Shown: piece by piece, positions 1-53,998 of the stretch
How the letters are laid out: every line of letters begins with the position of its first letter
How positions within the stretch are numbered: position 1 is the first letter of the stretch
From: an uncultured Acidobacteriota bacterium
GTDB lineage: Bacteria; Acidobacteriota; Thermoanaerobaculia; Multivoradales; UBA5704
Direction of reading: 5' to 3'
NCBI GenBank assembly: GCA_963698025.1
Contig: OY969112.1
Location: forward strand, 6,629,101-6,693,100
Length of the DNA: 64,000 bases
Position numbers and translations under genes: made by a program
Notes under the pieces: generated by a model
Told to the model about the DNA's origin: nothing
The model's input: the letters and a program-made list of their open reading frames with translations, nothing else
Databases searched by the model: none

Positions 1-753
1 TTGCGCCCGTAAAGCATTGGCCAGGAGGGCCGAGGCGTAGCCCCGGAGCTTATAGCGCGACCGGTCCTCTACGGGAACCAGTTCGGCTACTTGAACCGCA
101 AGCTTTCCAAGCTGGACCGCCAGGGCAGGATTGTTTGAAGCCTGTTGCTTGCTTTCAAGACAGAGATGCTCGCAGAGTGCCCAGCTCTGAAATTCCCTTG
201 CTTCGCGGACGAGAGCTTCCTGAAAGGAGAAGGGATATCTCTGCAATCGTTCCCAGAGGCCAGCGGCATGAGAGGAGTTCTCCGGAGAGAGCATGGTGAC
301 TCCACTCCCGGCGGCATTCATTGGGCCGCTCTTCTGGCATGAGCTCGCGGAGGAGCGATGTCGCACGAGCAAGGCGATGGCCCCGGTGAGCCGAGATACT
401 GCCTCTCCTGCTTGGGCGGTCATCGATGCGATCTGCTCCGAGAGGGCATCTGAGACCTCGGGGGGCACCGTATCGACCCTCTGCCGCGCTCCGGCAGAAC
501 CCCGGCTGAAACGGAGTGCGAGGAGAAAATCCCGTGCCCTGTCGAGATCCGAAAACCCATATTCCATTGAGGAGAGCATGCGCATCAGGCTTTTAAGCTC
601 CGGGAGCTTTTTTCCCGTCTCATACTGAGAGACCGAGCTCGCGGGGACGCCTGACACCCGTGCCAGTTCCGCCTGTGACCAGCCTCTCCCGGTTCTCAAT
701 AGCGCGAGAATCACCCCGAGGTCCGGATCGATATACGACGCGTCTTCTCCCAT
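1..753 (-). CDS. XRE-family HTH transcriptional regulator with a C-terminal helical (TPR-like) domain. The 5' end is complete and the 3' end is truncated by the window edge.
   Basis: ATG at 753-751 on the minus strand, preceded by a GGAGGA Shine-Dalgarno sequence. Translation: MGEDASYIDPDLGVILALLRTGRGWSQAELARVSGVPASSVSQYETGKK..., a classic HTH_XRE. Later residues (...EFQSWALCEHLCLESK...VPVEDRSRYKLRGYASALLANALRAQ) align with the 42173..43645 protein (EFRSWALCELICKESI...RRRLQGYAWAHVGNARRVRG), so the two are paralogs. The frame stays open to position 1, which is why the ORF track (which needs a stop) does not list it. Confidence 0.7.
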   Translation of the reverse strand, partial: MGEDASYIDPDLGVILALLRTGRGWSQAELARVSGVPASSVSQYETGKKLPELKSLMRMLSSMEYGFSDLDRARDFLLALRFSRGSAGARQRVDTVPPEVSDALSEQIASMTAQAGEAVSRLTGAIALLVRHRSSASSCQKSGPMNAAGSGVTMLSPENSSHAAGLWERLQRYPFSFQEALVREAREFQSWALCEHLCLESKQQASNNPALAVQLGKLAVQVAELVPVEDRSRYKLRGYASALLANALRAQ

Positions 754-1005
754 TCTTCCTCCAGAGCAGAGTGGAACCACCGCCCTCTATTTTCGTACAG
801 AGTGAACTCTTTCCTCAAGAAGGGCATGTGTCTTCGAGTTCCGAGTAGAACGATCTGTCCACAGGGTCATTCAGCCTTTGCCTTTGACGAAAGAATCTTC
901 TGCATTGGTGGATCGAGCGCCTCTCTTGCGCCACACTTCCCGCAGGAATCGGCTCGCCGGTGGCCATGGTGGCCCCGGCCCGCAGCCGTTCCAGAGAGGA
1001 ACGCT

Positions 1006-1296
1006 ATGACTCGTGCCCAGATCCGGTATACCGCCGTGCTGTTCCTAGTGCTTCTGGTTTCTGTGCCTCTTGTCTCGGCCGCCGCACCCATCGCCGTCAA
1101 TCGCCACGAGCAGGTCAAGTGGTTCCCCTCTGTTAAAGAAGGGATTGTCTCCAGGCTGTGGAGTCTCCTCGGCAGCTTCTGGGAAAAGGAGGGAAGCTCT
1201 TTGGACCCTGATGGCAAGCTTGTCGCCTACCCTGCCCATGGCAGTGCCGCGGACGAAGGATCGTCGCTTGATCCGAACAGCATGTTTAAGCCCTGA
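1006..1296 (+). CDS. Small secreted protein (97 aa) with a signal peptide and a conserved LWxxLxxFWxK...GSSLDP(D/N) motif. It is a paralog of 43702..44010.
   Basis: ATG at 1006 with an AGAGAGGA Shine-Dalgarno sequence 6 nt upstream. N-terminus MTRAQIRYTAVLFLVLLVSVPLVSAAA is a typical Sec signal with an AxA cleavage site. The mature part contains RLWSLLGSFWEKEGSSLDPDG and a second EGSSLDPN, encoded by different codons, so this is not a recent DNA duplication. It is divergent from the XRE regulator at 1..753. Confidence 0.55.
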   Translation: MTRAQIRYTAVLFLVLLVSVPLVSAAAPIAVNRHEQVKWFPSVKEGIVSRLWSLLGSFWEKEGSSLDPDGKLVAYPAHGSAADEGSSLDPNSMFKP

Positions 1297-1495: not shown

Positions 1496-2203
1496 ATGGA
1501 CACACTTGAGATTCCGATCCTGGAGACGGAACGGCTGCGGCTCAGGTCTTTCGGCAAAGGTGACATCGAAGACTACGCCGCGATGAACGCCGATCCTGAA
1601 GTCTTGCGGTATTTGGCAGGAGCTGGAGCCGAGCCGTGGGACCGGGGGCGGTCCTGGCGGCATCTGGCATTCCTCCTTGGACACTGGCAACTCGGGGATG
1701 CCGGAATGTGGGCGGTGGAGCACAGAGAGACCGGCGGCTTCATCGGGGTGGTCGGTTTCGCCGCGCCTGAAGGCTGGCCCGGCTTTGAGCTCGCATGGAC
1801 TCTGGCGCGTCGATGGTGGGGGCACGGCTACGCTACCGAGGGCGCACGGGCAGCTCTGGCCCATGCCTTCACCGTCTTGGAAAAGGCTCACGTCATCAGC
1901 CTCATCCATCCGGAGAATCGGGCTTCCATCCGGGTCGCCGAGCGGATTGGCGAAAGGCTGCAAGACCACATCCATCATCTCGGGCGGCAGATGCTCTGCT
2001 ACGGTATCGACCGGAAAACCTTTCTGACCGAGAGGGTGCCGGCCGCGTCACGGCTTCCGGCCCTTGGCATAGGTTCCACGCCTCGATCGAGCTCCCGTTC
2101 AGCGTCTCTCGTTGTTCCCGAGGGCTCCTTCAATGTCCGCTGTACTGCCGGAGTACTCGAACAGCCCGTCCGCCCGGCCCGCGTAGAGGACGCCGGGACG
2201 TAG
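1496..2203 (+). CDS. GNAT family N-acetyltransferase (RimJ/RimL-like)
   Basis: ILETERLRLRSF...ELAWTLARRWWGHGYATEGARAALAHAF, matching the Acetyltransf_3 pattern. The GNAT fold ends near position 2035; the last ~55 codons overlap the convergent gene 2099..4099, so the true 3' end is uncertain. Confidence 0.75.
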   Translation: MDTLEIPILETERLRLRSFGKGDIEDYAAMNADPEVLRYLAGAGAEPWDRGRSWRHLAFLLGHWQLGDAGMWAVEHRETGGFIGVVGFAAPEGWPGFELAWTLARRWWGHGYATEGARAALAHAFTVLEKAHVISLIHPENRASIRVAERIGERLQDHIHHLGRQMLCYGIDRKTFLTERVPAASRLPALGIGSTPRSSSRSASLVVPEGSFNVRCTAGVLEQPVRPARVEDAGT

Positions 2204-7691: not shown

Positions 7692-7867
7692 TCACGACAC
7701 CGTCCCGTTCTGTCGCTTCATACGCTGTTGCGTTGCATCATATCCAGGGGCTCTGCATCAGAGAGGCGAGCGCTGAATGAATCCGCGCTTGTCGAAACCG
7801 CCCGGATTGGCGATGATCCCCCTCTCACCGCACTTCCGCGAGACTTCCGCGAGGAGGGGAGCCGACC

Positions 7868-9535
7868 ATGGCGTCTGACATCGAAATCGCGCAGCAGGCC
7901 AAGCTCGAACGGATCACCACGGTCGCCGCGAAGCTGGGGATTCCCGAGGAGCACCTCGAACCCTACGGCCACACCAAGGCCAAGATCTCGCTGGAGTATC
8001 TGAACGGTCTCGCCGGCCGGCCGGACGGCAAGCTGATCCTGGTCACGGCGATGACGCCGACGCCGGCCGGCGAGGGGAAGACCACCACCACCGTCGGCCT
8101 CGGCGACGCCCTGAACCGCATCGGCAAGAAGGCGGCGATCTGCCTGCGCGAGCCGTCGCTCGGGCCGGTGTTCGGCATGAAGGGGGGCGCCGCCGGCGGC
8201 GGCTACGCGCAGGTGGTGCCGATGGAGGACATCAACCTCCACTTCACCGGCGACTTCAACGCCATCGCGCTGGCCAACAACCTGCTGGCGGCGATGCTGG
8301 ACAATCACATCCACCAGGGGGGCGAGCCGGCGATCGACGTCCGGCGCATCGCCTGGAAGCGGGTGATGGACATGAACGACCGGGCGCTGCGCGAGATCGT
8401 CGCCGGCCTCGGCGGCGTCGCCAACGGCTTTCCGCGCCAGGACGGCTTCGACATCGTGGTCGCCTCCGAGGTGATGGCGATCCTCTGCCTCGCCACCTCG
8501 CTGGCCGATCTCAAGGCCCGCCTGGGCAACGTCGTCGCCGCCTACACGCGCGACCGCCAGCCGGTGCGCGCCCGCGACCTCCAGACCCACGGCGCGATGG
8601 CCGTGCTGCTCAAGGACGCCATCAAGCCCAACCTGGTGCAGACGCTGGAGAACAACCCCGCCTTCATCCACGGCGGGCCGTTCGCCAACATCGCGCACGG
8701 CTGCAACTCGGTGACCGCCACCCGGGCGGCGCTGAAGCTCGCCGACTACGTGGTCACCGAGGCCGGCTTCGGCGCCGATCTGGGGGCCGAGAAGTTCGTC
8801 GACATCAAGTGCCGCAAGGCGGGGCTGAAGCCGTCCGGGGCGGTGATCGTCGCCACCGTCCGCGCGCTCAAGTACCACGGCGGCGTGGACCTGAAGAACC
8901 TCACCGAGGAGAACCTGGAGGCGCTGGAGAAGGGGATGGCCAACCTCGAGCGCCACATCGAGAACGTGCGGGATCACTACGGCATCCCCTGCGTGGTGGC
9001 GGTGAACCGCTTCAGCTCCGACACCGCCGCCGAATTCGAGCGGGTGCGGTCGCGGCTGGCGGAGAAAGGGGTCACCGCCGTGCTCGCCTCGCACTGGGCC
9101 GAGGGTGGGAAGGGCGCCGAGGACCTGGCGCGGGCCGTGGTCGAGCTCTGCGACCGCGCCCCGAGCGTCCGGTTCGTCTACGACGACGCCGACCCGCTCT
9201 GGGAGAAGATGGAGAAGATCGCCACGAAGGTCTACCGCGCCTCGGCCGTGACCGCGGACTCCAAGGTGCGCGAGCAGATCGCCCGTCTGCAGGCCGACTA
9301 CGGCCATTATCCCGTCTGCGTGGCCAAGACCCAGTACTCGTTCTCGACCGACCCCAGCCTGCGCGGCGCCCCCACGGGCCATACGATCAACGTGCGCGAG
9401 GTGCGCCTGTCGGCCGGCGCCGAATTCGTGGTGATGATCTGCGGCGACGTGATGACCATGCCCGGCCTGCCCAAGGTGCCCGCCGCCTGCCGCATCGACA
9501 TCGACGACGACGGCAGGGTGGTGGGGCTGTTCTGA
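7868..9535 (+). CDS. fhs: Formate--tetrahydrofolate ligase
   Basis: 555 aa. [45 protein letters not shown]...[21 protein letters not shown]... shows the P-loop and is collinear with FTHFS throughout. A GAGGAGGGGAG Shine-Dalgarno sequence is upstream. Confidence 0.95.
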
Positions 9536-36202: not shown

Positions 36203-38635
36203 TCACCCCTCCGCCCGCAAAGTAATCCCCGGCTCCACCCGCGTAGCCCTGCGGGCCGGCAGGTAGCAGGCTAACAAAGCGATCGCCCCCAGCAGGATAG
36301 GCGCCCCCAGGTAGTACAAGGGATCGAGGGCGCTCACCGCGAAGAGCAATCCCGTCAGGGCTCGCGAAAGCAGGAAGGCCGCGGCCAGCGCTCCCACCAG
36401 GCCGATTGCCAATCCGATCAGCACCCAGCGGAACCCCTGCCTTACGACGACCGCCAGCACCTGGGATCTCTGGGCGCCTAGCGCCATGCGGACGCCGATC
36501 TCCTGCCGGCGGGCCGAGACCGATTGCGCCACCAGGCCGTAGATCCCGAGCGCGCAGAGGAGCAGCGCCACGGCCGAGAAGCCGGTGAGCAGGCCCATGG
36601 TCATCCGGCGGCCGGCCAGGGAGTCGGCCACGATCCCCTCCAGCGTCTGCAGGTCGGCCACCGGCTGCTCGGGATCGAGGGCGCGCACCTCCCGGCGCAC
36701 GCTCGCGGCCACCTGCGCCGGCGGCAACGAGGTGCGCACCAGCAGGTTCATGAACGGCGTCGGCAGGTTGATCTGCTGGCCGGCCGGGAGGAAGAACTCG
36801 GCGTCCTTCGCGACGTCCGGTCCGAGCTGCTGGACGTCCTGGACCACCCCGATGATCTCCAGCTTGACCTTGCGGCTCCCCATGACGATCCGCTTGCCGA
36901 GCGGATCCTGGCCCGGGAAGTACTGGCGCGCCAGCGACTCGTTGACCACCGTGGTGAGCGGCGCGTCGACCGGAGTCGCCGGATCGAACTCTCTACCCTT
37001 CACCAGGCGCGTCTGCAGGGTGCGGAAGTAGCCGGGGCTCACCACCATCAGCCAGGCGATCGGCTGGTCGCGCACCTCCAGCGGCCGCCCCTCGACGGCG
37101 AACGGCGATTTCCCCGACCCCTGCACCGGCAGGAAGTCGGACATCGCCGCCGACCGCACCCCCGGCAGCGTCCGCACCCGCTCCAGGATCTGGGCAAAGA
37201 ACGCCCGCCGGTGCCCCTGGTCCGGGTACTTCGCCGTCGGCAGCGAGATCTGCAGCGCGAGCAGCCCCGAGGGATTAAAACCCAGATCCACGCGCGAGAG
37301 CTGGCGGAAGCTCTGGATCAGCAGCGTCGCCCCGATCAGCAGCACCAGGGAGAGGGCGACCTCGACGGCCACGAACACCCCCTGCGCCCGAGCCCGGCGC
37401 GGGCCTGCCGTCGAGCCCCGGGAGCTCTCCCGGAGCTGCGCCGTGGCCTCGGTGCGCAGGCTCTGCAACGCCGGAATCAGCGAGAAGAGCACGCCGGTCA
37501 GCAGCGACAGCAGCAGTGTGAAGACGAGCACCCGGAGATCGATCCCCACCTGGTCGGCGCGCGGCAGGTTGGCGGGGTGGAAGGCGACCAGCAGCCGCAG
37601 CCCGGCATACGCCAGCGCCAGGCCCGCCAGGCTGCCGAGCAGGGCGAGCGCCACCCCCTCGGCCAGCCGCTGGCGGAGCACGCGACCTGCGCTCGCGCCC
37701 AGGGCCATGCGAACCGCCACCTCCTTGCGCCGCGAGAGCCCCTGGGCCAACAGCAGGTTGGCTACGTCGGCACAGGCGATCAGCAGCACCAGGGCGACCG
37801 CCCCCAGCAGCAGGACGAGGGACGAGCGGACGTTGCCCACCAGCTGCTCGGTCATCGGCACCAGGTCCAGGCGGAAGCCGGTGTCCAGATTTCCCGGCAG
37901 CGCCTGGGCGTAGCGGGCGTTGATCCGCCGCACCTCGCCGCGCGCGGCCTCCAGCGCCACCCCCGGCTTCAGCCGCGCCGCCACGTCCAGGTATCCGGCG
38001 CCCAGCTCGATCGCGCGCTCCGGGAGCATCGAGATCTCCTGGGGGCGTGGCAGCCAGACCTGGATGTCGCGGAACGGGAAGTGGAGCACGTCGGGGAGGA
38101 CGCCGACGATCGTCCACGGCTTCCCTTCCAGCCGCACCGCCTTGCCGAGGATCGCCGGGTCGCCGCCGAAACGCTTGCGCCAGAGCCCTTCGCTCAGGAT
38201 CGCCACGTCGCCGCTCGCCTTCTCCTCCTCGGCCGGCGAGAAGCAGCGCCCCAGCAGTGGTTTCACCCCCCAGACCTCGCAGAACTCCTGGCTGATCCGC
38301 TCGCTGTGGAGGACCTCGGGATCGCCGCGCTCGGTGAGGTTGACGTCCTCCTGGTAGCAGGAGGTGACGGCGGCGAAGAGGCCGCTCTCGTGCAGCGCCC
38401 GGACCTTGGGCACCGACAGCCCGCTCTGGCTCAGGCCCTGCTCGGGCGAGCTGGCCCAGATCTGCACCAGGCGCTCGGGATGGGGGTAGGGGAGGGGGCG
38501 CAGCACCACCGTGTTGAGCAGGCTGAAGATGGCCGTGTTGGCGCCGATCCCCAGCCCCAGGGCGAGGACCGCGATCAGCGTGAAGCCGGGGCTCTGCCGC
38601 AGCCGGCGGAAGCCGTATTTCAGATCTCGCAGCAT
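36203..38635 (-). CDS. ABC-transporter permease, duplicated FtsX/MacB-type (ADOP family), 810 aa
   Basis: MLRDLKYGFRRLRQSPGFTLIAVLALGLGIGANTAIFSL... followed by two MacB_PCD plus FtsX modules. There is no adjacent ATPase gene, so it is an orphan permease. Confidence 0.85.
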   Translation of the reverse strand: MLRDLKYGFRRLRQSPGFTLIAVLALGLGIGANTAIFSLLNTVVLRPLPYPHPERLVQIWASSPEQGLSQSGLSVPKVRALHESGLFAAVTSCYQEDVNLTERGDPEVLHSERISQEFCEVWGVKPLLGRCFSPAEEEKASGDVAILSEGLWRKRFGGDPAILGKAVRLEGKPWTIVGVLPDVLHFPFRDIQVWLPRPQEISMLPERAIELGAGYLDVAARLKPGVALEAARGEVRRINARYAQALPGNLDTGFRLDLVPMTEQLVGNVRSSLVLLLGAVALVLLIACADVANLLLAQGLSRRKEVAVRMALGASAGRVLRQRLAEGVALALLGSLAGLALAYAGLRLLVAFHPANLPRADQVGIDLRVLVFTLLLSLLTGVLFSLIPALQSLRTEATAQLRESSRGSTAGPRRARAQGVFVAVEVALSLVLLIGATLLIQSFRQLSRVDLGFNPSGLLALQISLPTAKYPDQGHRRAFFAQILERVRTLPGVRSAAMSDFLPVQGSGKSPFAVEGRPLEVRDQPIAWLMVVSPGYFRTLQTRLVKGREFDPATPVDAPLTTVVNESLARQYFPGQDPLGKRIVMGSRKVKLEIIGVVQDVQQLGPDVAKDAEFFLPAGQQINLPTPFMNLLVRTSLPPAQVAASVRREVRALDPEQPVADLQTLEGIVADSLAGRRMTMGLLTGFSAVALLLCALGIYGLVAQSVSARRQEIGVRMALGAQRSQVLAVVVRQGFRWVLIGLAIGLVGALAAAFLLSRALTGLLFAVSALDPLYYLGAPILLGAIALLACYLPARRATRVEPGITLRAEG

Positions 38636-38663
38636 TCTTTCTCTTCTCCCGTGATCTCTCTCG

Positions 38664-38689
38664 CCGGGCGGGATTTCAATCCCGCGCGG
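38664..38689. repeat. Degenerate copy of the palindrome family CCCGGGATTGAAATCCCGGG
   Basis: ccgggcgggatttcaatcccgcgcgg (hairpin gcggga-tttcaa-tcccgc), in the divergent ADOP-permease / mgtE intergenic region. Confidence 0.4.
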
Positions 38690-38754
38690 CTGCGGTATGG
38701 TACGCCCTGCTCCCGGGCCGCTCCGGGAGCCGTCCGGGAGAGGAAGATCCGATC

Positions 38755-41105: not shown

Positions 41106-41523
41106 GTTGGCGAGCCCGAGACCTCTCCAGCTGCCGTTGGTATATAGAACGGAGCGATTCTTATATAGAACAGCCATGCGGAATGGACTTCGTGCCTTCT
41201 CTCTATATACAAACCTCCCATTTCTATATAGGCAGGTCTCATCGAGACCTTAAAAGCACGCAAAATTTGCACAGAACCTCATCTCGGAACCTTACAAGCC
41301 CCCATTTTTTGATAGAAACAGACCAAATTCACAGCTTTATGGGGCGTGGAATCCTTGGCAGGACCCCTTTGTATATATAAAAGACCGATTTATATATAAG
41401 AACCAGCCACTGAGCTCATCCGAGGCCACCTGCGTATATATTTTTGGGTCATCTCTATATAGAAAGCACCTCTGGAGTCCTCCCAAAGAGGCGCGAAGTG
41501 GAGACGACGCTAGAGAAAGACGT
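41106..41523. repeat. AT-rich intergenic island (about 42% GC) with nine phased TATATAGAA-like motifs and a short perfect palindrome
   Basis: Motifs at 41140 (tatatagaac), 41161 (tatatagaac), 41203 (ctatatacaa), 41223 (tctatatagg), 41308 (ttgatagaaac), 41371 (tatatataaaag), 41391 (tatatataagaac), 41435 (tatatatttttg) and 41457 (tatatagaaag). Spacings are 21, 42-44, 20, 85, 63, 20, 44 and 22 bp, all multiples of about 21 bp. ggtctc-atc-gagacc lies at 41234-41248. The island sits between convergent gene ends. Confidence 0.6.
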
Positions 41524-41808
41524 TCATCGGCCCCCCGGCTCCCGTTTTTTCCGCGAGTAGGCCGCCGCAGCCAGGAGATCCCGTATGGCGGGGCCGATGC
41601 AGTCGGCGAGGACGCACTCGATCACCGCGCGGAGCTCCGTGGCGACATCGTTCTCCTCTTCGCTCTCCTCTTCCCGATCTCCGGTGGCCGGCGCCGGCAG
41701 GCTTCCGTGAAGCGTCCGCAATCGCTTCTCGATCTTTTTCAGGTCCTCGGCCACACCCTGTAGATTGTCCTGCACCGCGGCTTCCAGCTCCGAATCACCC
41801 TCGCTCAT
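41524..41808 (-). CDS. Small acidic hypothetical protein (94 aa)
   Basis: ATG with a GGAGGGAGG Shine-Dalgarno sequence. MSEGDSELEAAVQDNLQGVAEDLKKIEKRLRTLHG...REEESEEENDVATELRAVIECVLADC... Divergent from the XRE-TPR regulator. Confidence 0.5.
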   Translation of the reverse strand: MSEGDSELEAAVQDNLQGVAEDLKKIEKRLRTLHGSLPAPATGDREEESEEENDVATELRAVIECVLADCIGPAIRDLLAAAAYSRKKREPGGR

Positions 41809-42093
41809 CCGGCTTCGCCTCCCTCCAGAACCTCCGTTTCAAGAGAGGCTAAAGAGATGGCGCGATCTGCCGGAAGGCGCCGGCGGTCTCAGGCCGCCGG
41901 GCTCACAAATCAGGGCACAGGCGGGGTGATCCCCGGCGGAGTCATCCCCGGCGGGCCTCTTCTCCCAGCCGGACCCTGGGCAGCTGGGACCGAACGAACG
42001 AGGGGCGGGCCGCTCACGGGCGATCGCGGCAGGGGTAATGCCCAGCCGTGCCGGTTTCCCTTCAGGCGTATCGTACGGCGGCATCAAATGATC

Positions 42094-42152
42094 CCTTCAA
42101 CGTGTGGGGGTGTCACGCCATGGTCCTGGCTTACACTCTATATCGTTGAAGG
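42094..42152. promoter_or_regulatory. 9-bp inverted repeat (ccttcaacg ... cgttgaagg) 21 nt upstream of the XRE-TPR regulator start; a candidate operator
   Basis: Arms at 42094-42102 and 42144-42152 with a 41-bp spacer. The position is consistent with autoregulation. No -10/-35 assignment was attempted. Confidence 0.2.
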
Positions 42153-42172
42153 ACGACATCGGAGGGAGCTGC

Positions 42173-43645
42173 ATGGCGTCGAAGAAATTGTCGGATCTGA
42201 ACCTCGCGCTGACGGTGATGCGGTCCGCGCTGAGCTGGAATCAGGCGGAGCTGGCCCGGGTGGCCGGGCTGCCGCCCAATGCCGTCTCGGACTTCGAGCG
42301 TGGGAACCGGGCGTTCTCCCTCGAAAGGCTGGAGGAGCTGGCCAGCGTCATGGGGCTGCCGCCGGGGGCGGTCGACCAGGCCCGCATCTTCGTCCGTTCC
42401 ATGGGCCAGCAGGCCAGGGCTCCCGGCGATCCCGACGAGGACGCCGAAGCGGACCGCAGGCACGTGGAGCAGGTCGCCGCCCAGGCTGGGAACGTCACCA
42501 TGGAATTCGCTCGCACGCTGCTGAATTCCCTCACCGCCGAGGGCCGGGCCCTGGTGTTCCGCCGGCAGGCGCGGGTGCTCTGGCGGAGGATGCAGAGGCA
42601 CACGCCCTCCGAGCGGCGAGCGTTCGTCGAGGCGGATCCGGAATTCCGGAGCTGGGCTCTCTGCGAGCTGATCTGCAAGGAGAGCATCAAGGCGGCAGCC
42701 GACAATGCCGATCGCGCCGGCGAGCTCGCGGATCTGGCCCTGCTCATCGCAGACCTCGCGCCCCTCGAGGCGAGCTGGCGCCGGCGCCTCCAGGGCTACG
42801 CCTGGGCTCACGTCGGCAATGCCCGGCGGGTCCGGGGTGACCTGCCGGGCGCTGAAGAGGCCTTTTCCCGTGCAGGCGAGCTCTGGAAAACCGGCACGCA
42901 CGGTGATCCGGGGCTCCTCGATGAGGCCCAGGTGTTCAGCCTGGAAGCTTCCCTGCGCACGACTCAGGGGCGCTTGCCAGAAGCCGCGATCCTCCTCGAT
43001 CAGGCGCTCGCGCTTGCTCCCAGGAATCTCAGACCGAATCTGCTCCTTCAAAAGGCAAGGCTGCTGGAGTGGGCCGGGAGCTATGAGAGTGCCTTAACGA
43101 CGCTGGCGGAGGCGGCTCCTCTCATTACTCAACAGAACGAGCCGAGGCTACTCTTCATGCTACGGCACAACTATGCCTCGAACCTGACACATCTCGGGCG
43201 GTATGCGGAAGCCGAGGCGTTACTGCCCGAGATCCAGCCGCTGGCAGTCCGGCTCGATAACCAGCTTGACGGATTGCGAGTGCATTGGATGCGGGGGCGG
43301 ATCGAGGCTGGCCTGGGAAAGATGGATGACGCTCTCGTGGCGTTGTCCCAGGTACGGACAGAGTTCGCGGCCCGGGGCACCGCCTATGACGCCGCACTGA
43401 TTACGCTTGAGTTGGCCACACTCTATCTGGAGCAAGGGCGTACCTGGGAAGTCAAGACGCTCGCGCGCCAGATGACGCCGATTTTTCACACGCAAGGAGT
43501 TCATCGCGAGGCTTTAGCGGCTCTAAAGCTGTTCTGTGAAGCGGCCGAAAAGGAATTGGCCACTGTGGAATTAGCGCGACGAATGGTGGAGTACCTTTAT
43601 AGAGCTCGCCACAACCCGACACTCCGTTTTGGGGAGCGCCCATGA
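42173..43645 (+). CDS. XRE-family HTH transcriptional regulator with a long C-terminal TPR-like helical domain (490 aa)
   Basis: Start at internal Met 24 (MASKKLSDLNLALTVMRSALSWNQAELARVAGLPPNAVSDFERGN...) with a GGAGGGA Shine-Dalgarno sequence. The C-terminal 300 aa form repeated helical hairpins (…YESALTTLAEAAPL…LGRYAEAEALL…LGKMDDALVAL…YDAALITLELATLYLEQGRTWE…). Paralog of the partial gene at 1..753. Confidence 0.8.
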   Translation: MASKKLSDLNLALTVMRSALSWNQAELARVAGLPPNAVSDFERGNRAFSLERLEELASVMGLPPGAVDQARIFVRSMGQQARAPGDPDEDAEADRRHVEQVAAQAGNVTMEFARTLLNSLTAEGRALVFRRQARVLWRRMQRHTPSERRAFVEADPEFRSWALCELICKESIKAAADNADRAGELADLALLIADLAPLEASWRRRLQGYAWAHVGNARRVRGDLPGAEEAFSRAGELWKTGTHGDPGLLDEAQVFSLEASLRTTQGRLPEAAILLDQALALAPRNLRPNLLLQKARLLEWAGSYESALTTLAEAAPLITQQNEPRLLFMLRHNYASNLTHLGRYAEAEALLPEIQPLAVRLDNQLDGLRVHWMRGRIEAGLGKMDDALVALSQVRTEFAARGTAYDAALITLELATLYLEQGRTWEVKTLARQMTPIFHTQGVHREALAALKLFCEAAEKELATVELARRMVEYLYRARHNPTLRFGERP

Positions 43646-43701
43646 GACACCGGACCGGAGTGAGTACACGCCGGTCCAGTGGAGCTATAGGCGTACTCCG
43701 T

Positions 43702-44010
43702 TCAATGTCCGCTTACGCAACGGCCATTGGGATCGATCGACATCCCATTTTCGCAGGGCCCTGCGGAGCTACTGGTGGTGGGCTGGCTCGTGAGCAGGCC
43801 ATTCGGATCGGCACTGCCCCTGGCCTTGCTCCAGAAATTGGCGAGAGCTCCCCAAAGCTGCCCGAAAACTCCCCCCACCTCCTGGGCGACGGATGGGCCG
43901 GAGCGATGTGAGACACGGCTCCGGAGCTCGGAGGCGGAGACCCACGGGCTGACGAGGGTCAATCCCAGGACGAGAGCGACCACGGCACGGCGGAACGACA
44001 GACTGGACAT
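43702..44010 (-). CDS. Small secreted protein (102 aa), paralog of 1006..1296
   Basis: Start at internal Met 12 (MSSLSFRRAVVALVLGLTLVSPWVSAS, a signal peptide) with an AAAGGAG Shine-Dalgarno sequence. Mature region GQLWGALANFWSKARGSADPNG ... NGMSIDPNG aligns with RLWSLLGSFWEKEGSSLDPDG ... EGSSLDPN of the 1006..1296 product. It supersedes the opposite-strand ORF 43642..43911. Confidence 0.55.
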   Translation of the reverse strand: MSSLSFRRAVVALVLGLTLVSPWVSASELRSRVSHRSGPSVAQEVGGVFGQLWGALANFWSKARGSADPNGLLTSQPTTSSSAGPCENGMSIDPNGRCVSGH

Positions 44011-44151
44011 GACAGCGGCTCCTTTCGAGGCGGCTTCCACCACGGCCTTCAGGGCCGGGCCGGCGCCTCACCTGGGTATGTTGCCTCCAGACGTGCCGGA
44101 AAATCACCCCAAGAAGTGCATGAGGTATGCGTACCGAGGAGGAAAATCAGG

Positions 44152-44559
44152 ATGCCACGCCGGGACAACACCGAAGACGCGAAGGTCGTCGTCGCCTTTC
44201 TGCGCCTGCTCCGAGGCTGGACTCAGACGGAGTTGGCGGAGGCCGCGGGGCTCTCCGCCAGTGCCGTCAGCCGCTATGAGAGCGGGGACATCGTCCCCAG
44301 CCGCGAGGCACTGGAGGAGATCGCGGTGGCCACGGGCCTGCCGTTGCGGATGCTGGACCGGGTCTTCATCTGGGTCGGCGCGGCGCGAGCCGCCGTGGAG
44401 AGCGCGGCCGATCCGGGCGATCCGGACCGGCTGATCGCCGCCGCCGCGAGTGAGATGACGGCCGGGCTCACAGACCTCTTCGACTCCATCACGGCCAGGA
44501 TGCTCGCCGGCCTTCCGGACCTCGAAGCCGGCCCCTGGGGGAGGCGCTCCACGGTATAA
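44152..44559 (+). CDS. Short XRE-family HTH protein (135 aa); equals the N-terminal module of the XRE-TPR regulators and lacks the TPR-like domain
   Basis: Start at internal Met 13 with a GAGGAGGA Shine-Dalgarno sequence. LRGWTQTELAEAAGLSASAVSRYESGDIVPSREALEEIAVATGLPLRMLDRVFIWV...PGDPDR aligns with ELARVAGLPPNAVSDFERGNRAFSLERLEELASVMGLPPGAVDQARIFV...PGDPDED of the 42173 protein. Divergent from the secreted peptide gene, 141 bp away. Confidence 0.7.
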   Translation: MPRRDNTEDAKVVVAFLRLLRGWTQTELAEAAGLSASAVSRYESGDIVPSREALEEIAVATGLPLRMLDRVFIWVGAARAAVESAADPGDPDRLIAAAASEMTAGLTDLFDSITARMLAGLPDLEAGPWGRRSTV

Positions 44560-47392: not shown

Positions 47393-49948
47393 CTACTTCG
47401 CCACCACGCCGCGGAAACCCTGTCCGATGAGGGCCGCGATGTCGGCCAGGACGAGGGGGAAGGCGAGGCCGCCCGGGCAGGCGAGGTAGCGCGGCTCCCA
47501 GACGGGATCGTATTTGTCCTTGTAGGCGCGCAGCCCCTGGAAGTTGTAGAAGTGCTCGCCGTGGCGATAGACCAGCGAGCCCAGCCTGCTCCAGAGGGGC
47601 GCGATCGACCGCGCCTCGAGCCCGGCCAGCGGCGCCATGCCGAGGTTGAACCAGCGGTACCCCTGCTTCGAGCCGTAGAGCATCAGCTCGATGAACAGGT
47701 AGTCCATCACCCCGAGCGGGGCGTCGGGCGTGTGGCGCATGAGGTCGATCGAGATCTCCTCGTTCTCGCCTCCCGGCCAGAGGTTGGCGAAGGCCACGAT
47801 CGCGCCCCCCTTGCGCACCAGGGCGAGCGGCAGGCGGCGCAGGTAGCCCTGGTCGAAGAAGCCGAGCGAGAACCCCTTCTCCCGCGTGTTCTTGGTGCGC
47901 AGCCAGTCCTGCGAGATCCGCTCGACGTCGGGCATCAGGGCCGGGATCTCCTCGGGCGGGACCACCTCGAAGGTGCACCCCTCGTCGCCGGCGCGGCGCC
48001 AGGCGTGGCGCAGCTTCTTGCGGTTCCGCCCCTCGATGGTGAAGCCGGTGAGCGGCACGCGCGCCTCCTCGCCCAGCTTGACCAGCGTCAGGCCGAGGTC
48101 GACGTAGAGGTGGAGCATCCGCTCGCTCACCTGGTAGAAGCAGGTCCAGCCGTCGTGCCGGTCCACCATCTCGCGGAACTTCCAGACCAGCTCGGCGCGA
48201 TCCTTTTCGGGTCCCACCGGCCCGCCCATCGCCACCCAGCTCCGACGCTCGACGCCGAACATCACGAAGGCGTTGCCGGCGTCGTTGAACAACAGCTCCT
48301 TGTCGCCGAGCAGGGCGAGGTAGGAGTAGGTGCGCGGCGCCAGGGCGGCGATGGCGGCGGCGCGGTCGATCTGCTCCTCGGTAGGCGGCGCCGGCTCGGG
48401 TCCCGCCGGCCGCATCAGGTGCCGGATGGCGATGCCGAGCGCCACCGCCGTCACCGCGATCGAGGCGCGCAGGAAGCGCGGCGCGTTGCCGAACAGGGTG
48501 AAGTGCCACCAGAGGTCGCGCGAGTAGTCGACGTGCTTGTAGGCGAAGAACCCGAGCCAGAGCGAGCCCAGGATGACGATGACGATGGCCACGCTCCAGC
48601 TCGGCGTGAACGGCTCGGCGGTGAGCGAGGTCTTGCGGTAGAAGTGGCGATGGCAGGGGATGAGCGCGGCGAGCATCAGCGCCAGGATCAGCGCCTCCTC
48701 CCAGTCGAGCCCCTTGGCGAGGGAGAAGACGATGCCGCTGCCGAGCATCAGCAGGGTGAGCTGGTAGGCGGCGTCGAGACGCCGCTGCAGGCCGATCGCC
48801 AGGAAGAGGAGCGCGACCCCGGCCAGGCTGCCGGCGAAGTGGGAGAACTCGATGACCGGCAGCGGCAGGATGTCGTCGAGCCAGGAGAGGCGGGAGTGGA
48901 CCTCCGGCGTGGCCCCCGAGATGAGCAGGATGGCACCGCCCAGGAAGGTGGTGACGGCGAGGATCTGCGGCACCACGTCCGGCGCCCGGCCGCCGAAGGC
49001 GCGGGCGATCTTGCCCACCTGCTCGCGCCGGCGCACGACCTCGTGGGCGCCCAGCGAGACGGCGGCGATCAGCAGCGGCATGAAGTAGTAGACGCCGCGG
49101 AAGGCGACCATCGCCGCCAGCAGGTCGGCGTGCGGCAGCTCCTGCGGCATCAGCAGCACCATCATCGTCTCGAACACCCCGAGCCCGCCGGGCACGTGGC
49201 TGAGCAGCCCCGCCACCTGGGCGAACAGGAAGATGCCGAGGAAGTGGAGGAAGGTGATGTTCCAGGAGGAGGGGAGAAGGGCGTAGAGCACCGTGCCGGC
49301 GAACGCCCAGTCGAGCGCGGCGACGGCGATCTGCGCCGCCGCCATCGGTGGGCGGGGGACGGCGAACTCCAGCCCCTTGAAGGTGAACGGCCGCCGGCGG
49401 ACGAACGAGGCGATGAGGAAGGCGGCGATCAGTCCGAGAAACAGCACGCCGACCGGCCGCGCGGTGGCCACCGGCAGGTGCAGCAGCGCCGGCACGGCGA
49501 CCGGATCGAGCAGGAAGGCGGTGCCGGAGAGCCCGATGAACCCCAGCCAGAAGGTGATGTAGCTGAACAGGACGACGCGGGTGATGTCGATCGCCGTCAT
49601 CCCCCACCCCGAGTAGAGGCGGGCGCGCAGGGGGGTGCCGGTGAACAGCGGCAGCCCGAGGGTGTTGCTGAAGGCGTAGCCGGTGAAGGAGGCGAGCGCG
49701 ACCTTCCAGTAGGCGATGCGCTTGCCGATGTAGCGCAGGGCGAGCGCGTCGTAGCAGGTGAGGGCGAGATAGCTCAGCACGGTGAAGGCTACCGCCATGA
49801 TCACCCGGTGCGCCGGCAGGTTGTGGAAGAAGAGGATGATGTCCTTGTAGCGGAAGTCGCGCAGCTCGCGGCGGAGCAGCCAGAGGGCCAGCGCGAAGAA
49901 GAACAGGCTGAGCAGCGAGGTGAGCTTCGAGAGCTGAATCTTCTTCAA
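47393..49948 (-). CDS. mprF: Bifunctional lysyl-phosphatidylglycerol flippase/synthase MprF
   Basis: 851 aa. N-terminal ~14-TM flippase domain plus a C-terminal DUF2156/LPG-synthase domain (…LGDKELLFNDAGNAFVMFGVERRSWVAMGGPVGP…HAWRRAGDEGCTFEV…). Confidence 0.9.
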   Translation of the reverse strand: MKKIQLSKLTSLLSLFFFALALWLLRRELRDFRYKDIILFFHNLPAHRVIMAVAFTVLSYLALTCYDALALRYIGKRIAYWKVALASFTGYAFSNTLGLPLFTGTPLRARLYSGWGMTAIDITRVVLFSYITFWLGFIGLSGTAFLLDPVAVPALLHLPVATARPVGVLFLGLIAAFLIASFVRRRPFTFKGLEFAVPRPPMAAAQIAVAALDWAFAGTVLYALLPSSWNITFLHFLGIFLFAQVAGLLSHVPGGLGVFETMMVLLMPQELPHADLLAAMVAFRGVYYFMPLLIAAVSLGAHEVVRRREQVGKIARAFGGRAPDVVPQILAVTTFLGGAILLISGATPEVHSRLSWLDDILPLPVIEFSHFAGSLAGVALLFLAIGLQRRLDAAYQLTLLMLGSGIVFSLAKGLDWEEALILALMLAALIPCHRHFYRKTSLTAEPFTPSWSVAIVIVILGSLWLGFFAYKHVDYSRDLWWHFTLFGNAPRFLRASIAVTAVALGIAIRHLMRPAGPEPAPPTEEQIDRAAAIAALAPRTYSYLALLGDKELLFNDAGNAFVMFGVERRSWVAMGGPVGPEKDRAELVWKFREMVDRHDGWTCFYQVSERMLHLYVDLGLTLVKLGEEARVPLTGFTIEGRNRKKLRHAWRRAGDEGCTFEVVPPEEIPALMPDVERISQDWLRTKNTREKGFSLGFFDQGYLRRLPLALVRKGGAIVAFANLWPGGENEEISIDLMRHTPDAPLGVMDYLFIELMLYGSKQGYRWFNLGMAPLAGLEARSIAPLWSRLGSLVYRHGEHFYNFQGLRAYKDKYDPVWEPRYLACPGGLAFPLVLADIAALIGQGFRGVVAK

Positions 49949-49949
49949 C

Positions 49950-51047
49950 CTAGAACCAGCCCTTCCGCTTGAAATAGAGCGCCAGCAATCCGCCGGTGAT
50001 CGCCATCAGCGTCAGCACGGCGGGGTAGCCGAAGTACCAGCCGAGCTCCGGCATGTTCATGGGGCTCGCCTGGCGGTCGAAGTTCATGCCGTAGACGCCG
50101 GCGATGAAGTTCAGGGGGATGAAGATGGTGGAGATGATGGTCAGCACCTTCATCACCTCGTTGAGGCGGTTGCTGGTGCTGGAGAGGTAGACGTCGAGCA
50201 GGCCGGCGGCGAGGTCGCGGTAGGTCTCGATCATGTCGATGACCTGGATGGCGTGGTCGTAGCTGTCGCGCAGGAAGACCCGGGTCTCCGGCCGGATCAG
50301 GTGCGCCTCTTCCCGCTGCAGGCTGCTGATCACCTCGCGCTCGGGCCAGGCGATGCGCCGCAGGTCGAGGAGGTCGCGCTTGATGCGGTGGACGTCCTGG
50401 AGCGTCGCGGGCTCCGGCTTGAGGACCACCTCGTCCTCCAGCTCCTCGATGCGCTCGCCGTAGCGTTCGAGGACGGGGAAGAACTCGTCCATCAGGGCGT
50501 CGACCAGGGCGTAGAGGAGATAGTCGGACCCGAGCCTGCGGATCTGCCCCCCCTTGTTCTGCCGGATGCGCTCGCGGACCTTCTCGAAGGAGTCCCCCGG
50601 CACCTCCTGGAGGGTGATGACGTAGTTGCCCGAGAGGAAGAAGCTGATCTGCTCGAGCTCGAGCTCCTCCTCCCGCAGCAGCAGCGACTTCATCACCAGG
50701 AAGTGGTAGGCGCCGTAGTCCTCGAGCTTGGGGCGCTGGCCGCAGTTGAGGACGTCCTCCAGCGCCAGCGGATGGAACTCGAAGAGCTTCCCGAGCCCCT
50801 CCAGGAACGGGACGTCGTTCAACCCCTCGACGTTGATCCAGGTGACGGTCGGGGTGTCGCGGTAGGGCTCGAGCTCCTCGACGCTCTTGATCTCCTTCTC
50901 GTCGAGGTGGTCGGGCCCGTAGTCGATGACGGTGACGCGGACGGGACCCGCCGCCTCCCTCTCGGACGCGCGCAGCGTCCCCGGCGCCGTCCCCGGAGGG
51001 TGGTACCGCGATCCAACTTTCATCCGTCTGCCCGCAACAACGGCCAT
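49950..51047 (-). CDS. corA: Magnesium/cobalt transporter CorA
   Basis: Two C-terminal TM helices with the YGMNF motif (FIAGVYGMNFDRQASPMNMPE). Met 9 (MKVGSRY, 51023) is an alternative start. Two bp upstream of mprF on the same strand. Confidence 0.9.
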   Translation of the reverse strand: MAVVAGRRMKVGSRYHPPGTAPGTLRASEREAAGPVRVTVIDYGPDHLDEKEIKSVEELEPYRDTPTVTWINVEGLNDVPFLEGLGKLFEFHPLALEDVLNCGQRPKLEDYGAYHFLVMKSLLLREEELELEQISFFLSGNYVITLQEVPGDSFEKVRERIRQNKGGQIRRLGSDYLLYALVDALMDEFFPVLERYGERIEELEDEVVLKPEPATLQDVHRIKRDLLDLRRIAWPEREVISSLQREEAHLIRPETRVFLRDSYDHAIQVIDMIETYRDLAAGLLDVYLSSTSNRLNEVMKVLTIISTIFIPLNFIAGVYGMNFDRQASPMNMPELGWYFGYPAVLTLMAITGGLLALYFKRKGWF

Positions 51048-53882: not shown

Positions 53883-53998
53883 CCCGGGATTGAAATCCCG
53901 GGCTACTCACGGCCGTCCCATCCGGGACTTCCCAAAACCCTTTGCCTCCGAAGCCCCGGGAGGGGCGACTGTCGGTAGCCCGGGATTTCAATCCCGGG
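53883..53998. repeat. Pair of inverted 25-nt elements (gcccgggattgaaatcccgggctac) flanking 76 bp; MITE-like, and each terminus is itself palindromic
   Basis: cccgggattgaaatcccggg at 53883-53902 and cccgggatttcaatcccggg at 53979-53998 (the exact reverse complement, including the flanking gc...ctac). Lies between the ECF sigma start and the cytochrome-like lipoprotein gene. Confidence 0.6.

Follow-up and report, generated by a model that had tools for sequence, protein, structure and literature searches.

A multi-copy cassette of two XRE regulators, an exported peptide and a small acidic protein in Thermoanaerobaculia, with an RRNPP-like design

We analysed a 64,000-nucleotide stretch of the genome of an uncultured acidobacterium (contig OY969112.1, positions 6,629,101 to 6,693,100; hereafter the window, 68% G+C). 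Its positions 41524 to 44559 hold one copy of a regulatory cassette that is self-contained, multi-copy and confined to the Thermoanaerobaculia (Acidobacteriota). The cassette comprises four genes in fixed order and orientation: orf94, divergent from a type A regulator; the type A regulator, convergent with the gene of an exported peptide precursor (PEP); and PEP, divergent from a type B regulator. It is near certain that these four genes form one functional unit. The cassette is an undescribed, lineage-restricted system of RRNPP-like design in a diderm phylum, and our literature search found no published description of the cassette, PEP, orf94 or the DPxG loop that PEP carries. It is not classed here as a member of the RRNPP family, and it probably arose independently of the known RRNPP systems. 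That it works like one of them, by sensing a peptide, is a plausible reading that we hold at somewhat below an even chance.

A preliminary description of this DNA, made from the sequence alone, had proposed a three-gene module composed of a regulator, a 102-aa signal-peptide protein and a 135-aa helix-turn-helix (HTH) protein. All three genes are real and lie where it placed them, but the module proved larger, with four genes, two regulator types and, in some genomes, an additional paralog made of tetratricopeptide repeats (TPRs) only. The 94-aa reading frame fell inside the coordinates of that description without being mentioned; it turns out to be the conserved fourth member.

A four-gene cassette conserved across Thermoanaerobaculia

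The layout was read by profile searches over six-frame translations of related loci fetched from a genome collection, in which the regulator query recovered 54 loci. PEP adjoins a regulator at 47 of the 49 loci with sufficient flanking DNA, and at 40 of 51 testable loci an orf94 homologue is present, placed and oriented as in the window. From the peptide side, five PEP queries led to six genomic contexts, and the layout was identical in all six. The association of regulator and peptide is far beyond chance. All related loci belong to Thermoanaerobaculia or to unclassified Acidobacteriota, and several genomes carry at least 4-5 copies, as counted by contig names. More than 1000 regulator homologues were found at E <= 1e-5 (8000 candidates scored). 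Across about 60 loci with 5-8 kb of surrounding DNA, the flanks differ and no further neighbour gene is kept beyond those of the cassette. In particular, no cargo gene is conserved beside it, as expected for a self-contained signalling loop. The flanks in the window are ordinary chromosomal genes. Some cassettes look decayed (L048, L051, L058 and L047), with the type A regulator split across several frames or into two genes, and L047 has no PEP between its two regulators; such copies indicate that the paralog set turns over.

The type A regulator (42173..43645, + strand) has 490 aa and matches Pfam HTH_3 (3e-9) and TPR_12 (1.5e-11). An XRE HTH at residues ~8-65 is followed by a variable linker containing PGDPDE (~66-125) and by an all-helical TPR superhelix (~125-480). 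The protein has neither a hydrophobic N-terminal signal nor a membrane segment and is predicted to be cytoplasmic. The type B regulator of the window (44152..44559, + strand) is a shortened copy of 135 aa, with an XRE HTH plus ~60 residues and a match to Pfam HTH_3 only (3e-14). It aligns with type A residues 8-88 at 38-40% identity, the PGDPD segment included. The preliminary description had equated it with the N-terminal module of the regulator; the alignment through PGDPD stands, but the protein is a shortened member of a separate, old clade. Elsewhere, type B proteins usually have ~260-290 aa (the HTH and the first half of the helical domain) and are sometimes full length, and a 277-aa orthologue at L055 is nearly identical to the window protein over its first 95 residues.

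A neighbour-joining tree of the N-terminal 230 residues splits the regulators into two old clades, A and B. Type A proteins are always full length and convergent with PEP, whereas type B genes are divergent from it. The HTH scores against Pfam are above threshold for the type A protein (37 bits), the type B protein (53 bits) and a third regulator encoded at 1..753 of the window (39 bits). The recognition helices differ (NAVSDFERG in type A versus SAVSRYESG in type B), so the two types probably read different sites.

The fourth gene, orf94 (41524..41808, - strand), is divergent from the type A regulator and encodes an acidic, cytoplasmic protein of 94 aa with two helices, the first of which is coiled-coil-like. 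The family alignment displays a conserved C-terminal motif, RSVIECVLxDxIxPAIRDL. No Pfam or NCBIfam family matched orf94, and its matches in the Protein Data Bank (PDB) were designed coiled coils only.

The exported peptide and the control regions

The PEP gene of the cassette (peptide 2; 43702..44010, - strand) encodes a 102-aa precursor, and its stop codon lies 56 bp from that of the convergent type A gene. The precursor starts with a signal peptide composed of an N-terminal RR, a hydrophobic segment and VSA (MSSLSFRRAVVALVLGLTLVSPWVSA, then SE), followed by a polar stretch. Its middle part contains a Trp-rich amphipathic helix (VFGQLWGALANFWSK), a first unit GSADPNG and a Ser/Thr/Pro linker, and its end consists of the loop C-ENGMSIDPNGR-C and the tail VSGH. 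A second family member (peptide 1; 1006..1296, + strand; 96 aa) was recovered by tblastn at 3.5e-9. It has a signal peptide, the helix LWSLLGSFWEK and two cysteine-free units, EGSSLDPDG and EGSSLDPNS.

The same plan runs through the family: after the signal peptide and a polar stretch come a Trp-rich amphipathic helix (LWxxLxxxWxK), loop units and often a tail ending in GH. By inspection, essentially all members carry the signal peptide, with a basic n-region (often RR), a 12-15-residue hydrophobic core and an A/V-x-A site; given the conserved RR, export by the twin-arginine translocation (Tat) pathway is possible. The loop, G-C-x-[IMLA]-D-P-x-G-x-C, is present in 1-4 copies separated by Ser/Thr/Pro-rich linkers. 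Loop-derived peptide sequences of the family include CENGMSIDPNGRC, GMSIDPNGR, GCRIDPNGRC and the C-terminal SIDPNGRCVSGH. The preliminary description had noted a DPxG motif, which is indeed present; the form typical of the family, however, is the cysteine-bracketed loop, and both window copies are cysteine-poor variants. In some lineages, these two copies included, most cysteines are lost and S-x-D-P-x-G is kept. Several cysteine-free precursors terminate exactly at DPNG, which fits a mature peptide located at the C-terminus.

A PEP profile retrieved 306 proteins of 93-178 aa, and those with a named host come from Thermoanaerobaculia. The full library search gave 2186 PEP cluster representatives (50% identity), nearly all of 95-170 aa. 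The repeat units bear marks of selection on the peptide. EGSSLDP occurs twice in peptide 1, and six of its seven codons differ between the two copies, as the preliminary description had pointed out. Family-wide, 265 of 531 identical residues in within-gene repeats are encoded by different codons, which indicates that the repeats are old and that selection on the peptide has preserved them. At the variable loop positions, units of one precursor resemble each other more than units of different precursors do (similarity 0.47 versus 0.18 for x1, and 0.39 versus 0.15 for x2).

No Pfam or PDB match was found for PEP, and the DPxG motif had no match in the literature searched. Pfam DUF6799 was considered and set aside as a chance or partial resemblance: one relative, P0241, scores 31 bits, but only one of the 37 members scanned gave even a weak match (E 0.087). 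Separately, two large secreted proteins, P0338 (783 aa) and P0373 (731 aa), contain about 40 tandem GxG[ILVM]DP[ND]G[KR] units akin to the core of the PEP loop. Their C-terminal regions carry repeated VDEWDGEVVKR units, and neither protein has a Pfam family.

The divergent region between orf94 and the type A gene (41809..42172) is a candidate site of promoters and operators. It contains a tandem 15-nt repeat, GGCGG(G/A)GT(G/C)ATCCCC, at 41920..41949, then a TGTCAC box (~42110..42116), TACACTCTATATCGTTGAAGGACGAC and the GGAGG ribosome site of the type A gene. The TGTCAC box and the leader that follows it up to the type A start are conserved across loci, and a promoter-like GTGACA-17-GATCAT on the - strand (42116..42088) overlaps the box. 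The 56-bp gap between the convergent stop codons of type A and PEP (43646..43701) holds a GC-rich hairpin, CUGGACCGG...CCGGUCCGG, with fold z-scores of -2.7 (- strand) and -1.7 (+ strand). It has no T-run and is a likely shared transcription stop.

The divergent region between PEP and type B (44011..44151; 141 bp) was aligned over 42 loci. Its length (~130-145 bp) and the order of its elements are kept among paralogs that are only 45% identical. Reading from the peptide side, the PEP ribosome site is followed by a GC-rich imperfect palindrome around GGCC-N5-GGCC, a TATG(G/T)TGC box (TATGGTGC), an A/T-centred inverted repeat (GGGGTGATTTTCCGGCAC in the window), a second, paralog-specific inverted repeat (GCATGAGGTATGC in the window) and the type B ribosome site. 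The half-sites of the A/T-centred repeat differ by paralog (GGTG/CACC, GGGG/CCCC or GTGG/CCAC), and the strict palindrome GGTG-N7-9-CACC occurs in only 6 of the 42 peptide-side regions. Inverted repeats are modestly enriched, with a score >=6 in 24% of regions compared to 7% of shuffles, and we infer that they are candidate operators.

A few loci share a word of the GGGGTGAT/GGTGGAAAAA type between their orf94-side and peptide-side control regions. As a general rule, long operator words common to both regions of a locus were rejected, the mean longest word being 8.9 nt within loci against 8.2 nt between loci, a weak difference. An RNA element in the PEP leader was likewise discarded: RNAalifold returned a 4-bp hairpin only, with little covariation, and the leader in the window has a z-score of -0.5 versus shuffles.

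Peptide signalling and its rivals

Five points make up the published RRNPP signature: a propeptide of 10-100 aa, its export, a receptor of 250-500 aa, TPRs in the receptor, and direct neighbourhood of the two genes (PMC10075063). The cassette agrees with it in receptor size (490 aa), in the TPRs and in adjacency (56-bp gap). For export, a signal peptide is seen by inspection of the sequences, and the propeptide size is borderline, with 96 and 102 aa in the window and 93-178 aa in the family. The architecture put forward in the preliminary description, an XRE-type HTH plus TPR regulator beside a small signal-peptide protein, is supported. Propeptides containing several peptides occur in the Rap, NprR, PlcR and AimR systems (PMC9765709), which the variable number of repeat units in PEP resembles, and the many paralogs per genome recall Rap-Phr or Rgg-SHP. 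The host range is different. The literature searched describes RRNPP(A) systems from no hosts other than Bacillota and the mobile elements of that phylum (PMC10075063, PMC9765709, PMC12700828), in agreement with the preliminary statement that they are known only from Firmicutes, whereas every named homologue of the present cassette comes from Thermoanaerobaculia or other Acidobacteriota and none from viral contigs.

The fold of the sensor domain was assessed on an AlphaFold2 model of the type A regulator built from a 52-sequence alignment (pLDDT 90.3), used in place of a single-sequence model (pLDDT 66). In the model, a linker joins the HTH to a helical repeat domain that runs uninterrupted over residues ~125-480. 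Residues N216, R219, Q265, R369 and R376 of the regulator are invariant. In Foldseek searches against the PDB, the TPR domains of LGN/Pins and OGT rank first, and the highest TM-scores belong to RapJ-PhrC (0.49/0.65). As modelled, RRNPP receptors are the closest bacterial folds, yet no closer than generic TPR scaffolds. The preliminary description had named three points on which its proposal would stand or fall, and none of them went against it: the modelled helical domain is similar in fold to peptide-binding TPR regulators, as it is to generic TPR scaffolds, the peptide family is small and lineage-restricted rather than a widespread one unlinked to regulators, and the pairing across related genomes is borne out from both the regulator and the peptide side. 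We detected no sequence-level homology to any RRNPP subfamily in Pfam, NCBIfam or PDB profile searches.

Under the peptide-signalling reading, PEP would be exported by Sec and lose its signal peptide, and cysteine pairs would close 9-residue loops in the periplasm. Proteolysis would then free one or several DPxG peptides, which would exit the cell. At high density, these peptides would re-enter the cell and be bound by type A on the concave side of its TPR domain, which would alter the activity of the regulator at the inverted repeats of both divergent control regions. The expression of PEP, orf94 and the regulators would change in turn, closing an autoregulatory loop. The shortened type B protein, with its own recognition helix and without most of the sensor domain, could act at the PEP promoter without sensing the ligand, either as a partner or as a competitor. 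The orf94 protein, together with the TPR-only paralog where present, may be a cytoplasmic output or modulator. In its fullest form, this model would make the cassette the first RRNPP-type quorum sensing with a cytoplasmic receptor outside Bacillota, assembled independently from XRE and TPR parts in a diderm phylum, with disulfide-closed DPxG nonapeptide loops that multi-copy precursors release and a ligand-blind paralog regulator; we regard that form as tentative and rather doubtful.

Several observations weigh against peptide signalling. No RRNPP-specific model matched in Pfam or NCBIfam (E <= 0.1). The full-length profile found only HTH and generic TPR proteins among its best 60 matches to PDB sequences, and none of the 33 matches of a TPR-only profile at E <= 10 was an RRNPP receptor. 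In fold, generic TPR scaffolds of eukaryotes, among them LGN and subunits of the anaphase-promoting complex (APC/C), are at least as similar to the sensor domain as RRNPP receptors are. PEP exceeds the usual length of propeptides and contains, outside its loops, a strongly conserved Trp-rich helix, and its DPxG core is invariant in all paralogs, which counts against orthogonal pherotypes. The PEP and type A genes are convergent and not co-transcribed. In a diderm host, a loop peptide of 1-1.4 kDa must cross the outer membrane twice, and the cassette has no linked transporter or protease gene. The extra genes, orf94 and the second regulator type, go beyond the RRNPP pair, and orf94 and the TPR-only paralog are alternative candidate ligands of the TPR domain. 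Co-evolution of PEP and the TPR domain, estimated by distance matrices, gave a partial r of 0.54 over 22 loci and fell to 0.17 and -0.10 over 27 loci with intact regulators; lost in the cleaner data set, it is not used as evidence. Finally, the ~40-fold DPxG unit of P0338 and P0373 suggests that the motif has a general extracytoplasmic property.

This last observation, the amphipathic helix, the invariant DPxG core and the diderm host also favour a different explanation, in which PEP is a product and not a signal. Two XRE regulators would then switch the production of a small protein that is exported and has a function of its own outside the cytoplasm, for instance as a protein of the envelope or associated with a membrane, as a binder of Ca2+ or of polymers, or as an antimicrobial peptide. 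The input to the TPR domain would be a cytoplasmic partner (orf94 or the TPR-only paralog) or a small molecule. Here orf94 is as conserved as PEP, its strongly conserved helix could dock on the TPR groove, and the TPR-only paralogs are co-transcribed with orf94 in ~12 loci. A precedent exists in ComR, an RRNPPA receptor reported to answer non-peptide metabolites (PMC12998947). However, two or three dedicated regulators for each ~100-aa secreted protein, with no other conserved gene, would be unusual for an effector and are typically found with a signalling loop. In its variable repeat number and its DPNG C-termini, PEP has the look of a precursor and not of a folded domain, and no known structural or binding domain was detected in it. 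We consider this explanation possible, with a chance of well under one half.

Two further explanations appear much weaker. It is improbable that the cassette is a selfish or defensive element of the toxin-antitoxin or abortive-infection kind, with XRE proteins repressing a membrane-active PEP that orf94 neutralises. The XRE HTH does score against models of HipB, MqsA, RstR, CapH and control proteins, the cassette is multi-copy in varied chromosomal contexts, and PEP has an amphipathic aromatic helix; nevertheless, the PADLOC matches cover the HTH only, and PEP, orf94 and the TPR-only protein match nothing, so membership of a known defence system was rejected. A phage origin was also dismissed, as no relatives were found among 2.9 million viral contigs. 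Moreover, PEP with its cleavable signal peptide would act outside the cytoplasm whereas orf94 is cytoplasmic, and the cassette, with its two differentiated regulator clades, is old and has been stably inherited by vertical descent. More improbable still is that PEP is a multi-core precursor of a ribosomally synthesized and post-translationally modified peptide (RiPP), with modifying enzymes encoded elsewhere and the XRE proteins as pathway regulators. Repeated short cores in variable number, Cys and Asp at fixed spacing, and a conserved upstream helix that could serve as recognition sequence would suit such a precursor. Yet the ~60 loci share no nearby gene for a modifying enzyme, a peptidase-containing exporter or immunity, a Sec signal peptide is atypical for RiPP precursors, and many copies per genome, each with its own regulators, misfit a single biosynthetic pathway.

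Compared with the peptide-signalling systems already known, the cassette differs in several respects. Rap proteins have no HTH, and their targets are proteins, Spo0F and ComA among them; the cassette regulator, in contrast to the Rap-Phr systems of Bacillus, its phages and plasmids, carries an HTH and has no sequence homology to them. Phr peptides are linear penta- or hexapeptides. The NprR-NprX system of the Bacillus cereus group likewise has no detectable sequence homology to the cassette, whose host is a diderm acidobacterium, whose PEP is convergent with the receptor gene, 92-140 aa long and furnished with cysteine loops, and which adds a second regulator type and orf94. The Bacillales systems place the receptor gene first and the pheromone gene directly after it (PMC9765709). 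For PlcR-PapR and AimR-AimP(-AimX), the structural similarity to type A is below that of generic TPR proteins, and their propeptides are short with a single core, compared to 1-4 units in PEP. AimR is also phage-borne, unlike the cassette with its lack of relatives in the viral contigs. Outside this group, the Streptomyces WhiJ/BldB-like clusters share with the cassette many dispersed XRE-regulator copies per genome kept beside small partner proteins. Their partners are different, a cytoplasmic DUF397 protein and an anti-sigma-like ATPase, with no TPR sensor or exported peptide.

If the peptide-signalling reading is correct, the RRNPP design would have evolved repeatedly or would date back much further than has been assumed, peptides could act as density signals across an outer membrane, and each Thermoanaerobaculia genome would carry several such channels, within a phylum that is dominant in soil yet poorly cultured. 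The abundance of the cassette (>1000 regulators, ~2200 peptide clusters) provides enough paired sequences for coupling analysis, and the loop peptides are simple synthetic ligands for direct tests. Even if PEP is only a product, three of the four gene families (PEP, orf94 and the shortened regulator type) and the DPxG loop motif are undescribed.

Optional genes, the second locus and other features of the window

In ~12 cassettes, a TPR-only protein of ~390-400 aa is encoded after the orf94 homologue and co-transcribed with it (L055:10397-11575, L057:7439-8647, and L001, L018, L044, L021, L003, L012, L034, L016, L006, L007 and L013). It is homologous to the sensor domain of the regulator and keeps the motif GNARR, without an HTH. 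About 11 cassettes carry an extra ORF of 55-80 aa just upstream of orf94, between the orf94 homologue and type A (L025, L020, L026, L043, L039, L029, L042, L007, L044, L006 and L036), and another lies at L060:7455-7694. These small ORFs have an anti-sigma-like zinc-finger motif, H-L-L-x-G-C-P-x-C, with a weak Pfam zf-HC2 match (E 0.023). The zf-HC2-like ORF is absent from the window cassette.

The window copy has no TPR-only gene either, and an AT-rich stretch stands in its place. This non-coding stretch (41140..41470) lies just past the orf94 3' end; it contains 12 TATATAGAA-like words, which occur in both orientations, and a 29-nt inverted repeat (41141..41169 / 41202..41230). The whole window contains 13 TATATAGAA matches with at most one mismatch, against 0.5 expected. 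No such cluster was found in 60 related loci, where single exact copies occur only at L038 and L041, far from the cassette.

At the start of the window, peptide 1 is divergent from a regulator on the - strand (1..753), which is cut by the window start. Its visible 251 aa comprise an HTH and a helical region, with 33% identity to type A over 241 aa (tblastn) and matches to Pfam HTH_31/HTH_3. The preliminary description had reported a peptide paralog beside a regulator paralog here; both are confirmed, although the regulator starts at 753 (ATG, - strand) and not at 763. The regulator falls within clade B, and this locus is therefore a partial cassette without a type A gene: none lies downstream of peptide 1, and the next ORF (1496..2203) is unrelated. 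The divergent control region of this second cassette (754..1005; 252 bp) exceeds the usual length in the family and cannot be aligned with the other regions.

Three other genes of the window, none of them linked to the cassette in other genomes, encode a double MacB_PCD/FtsX permease (36203..38752, - strand), an MprF-like lysyl-phosphatidylglycerol synthase (47393..50005, - strand) and a formate-tetrahydrofolate ligase (7817..9535, + strand). Rfam gave no match within the cassette; its only match in the window is a full-length Acido-Lenti-1 RNA (RF01687) at 53883..53929 on the + strand, scoring 38 bits against a gathering threshold of 37.

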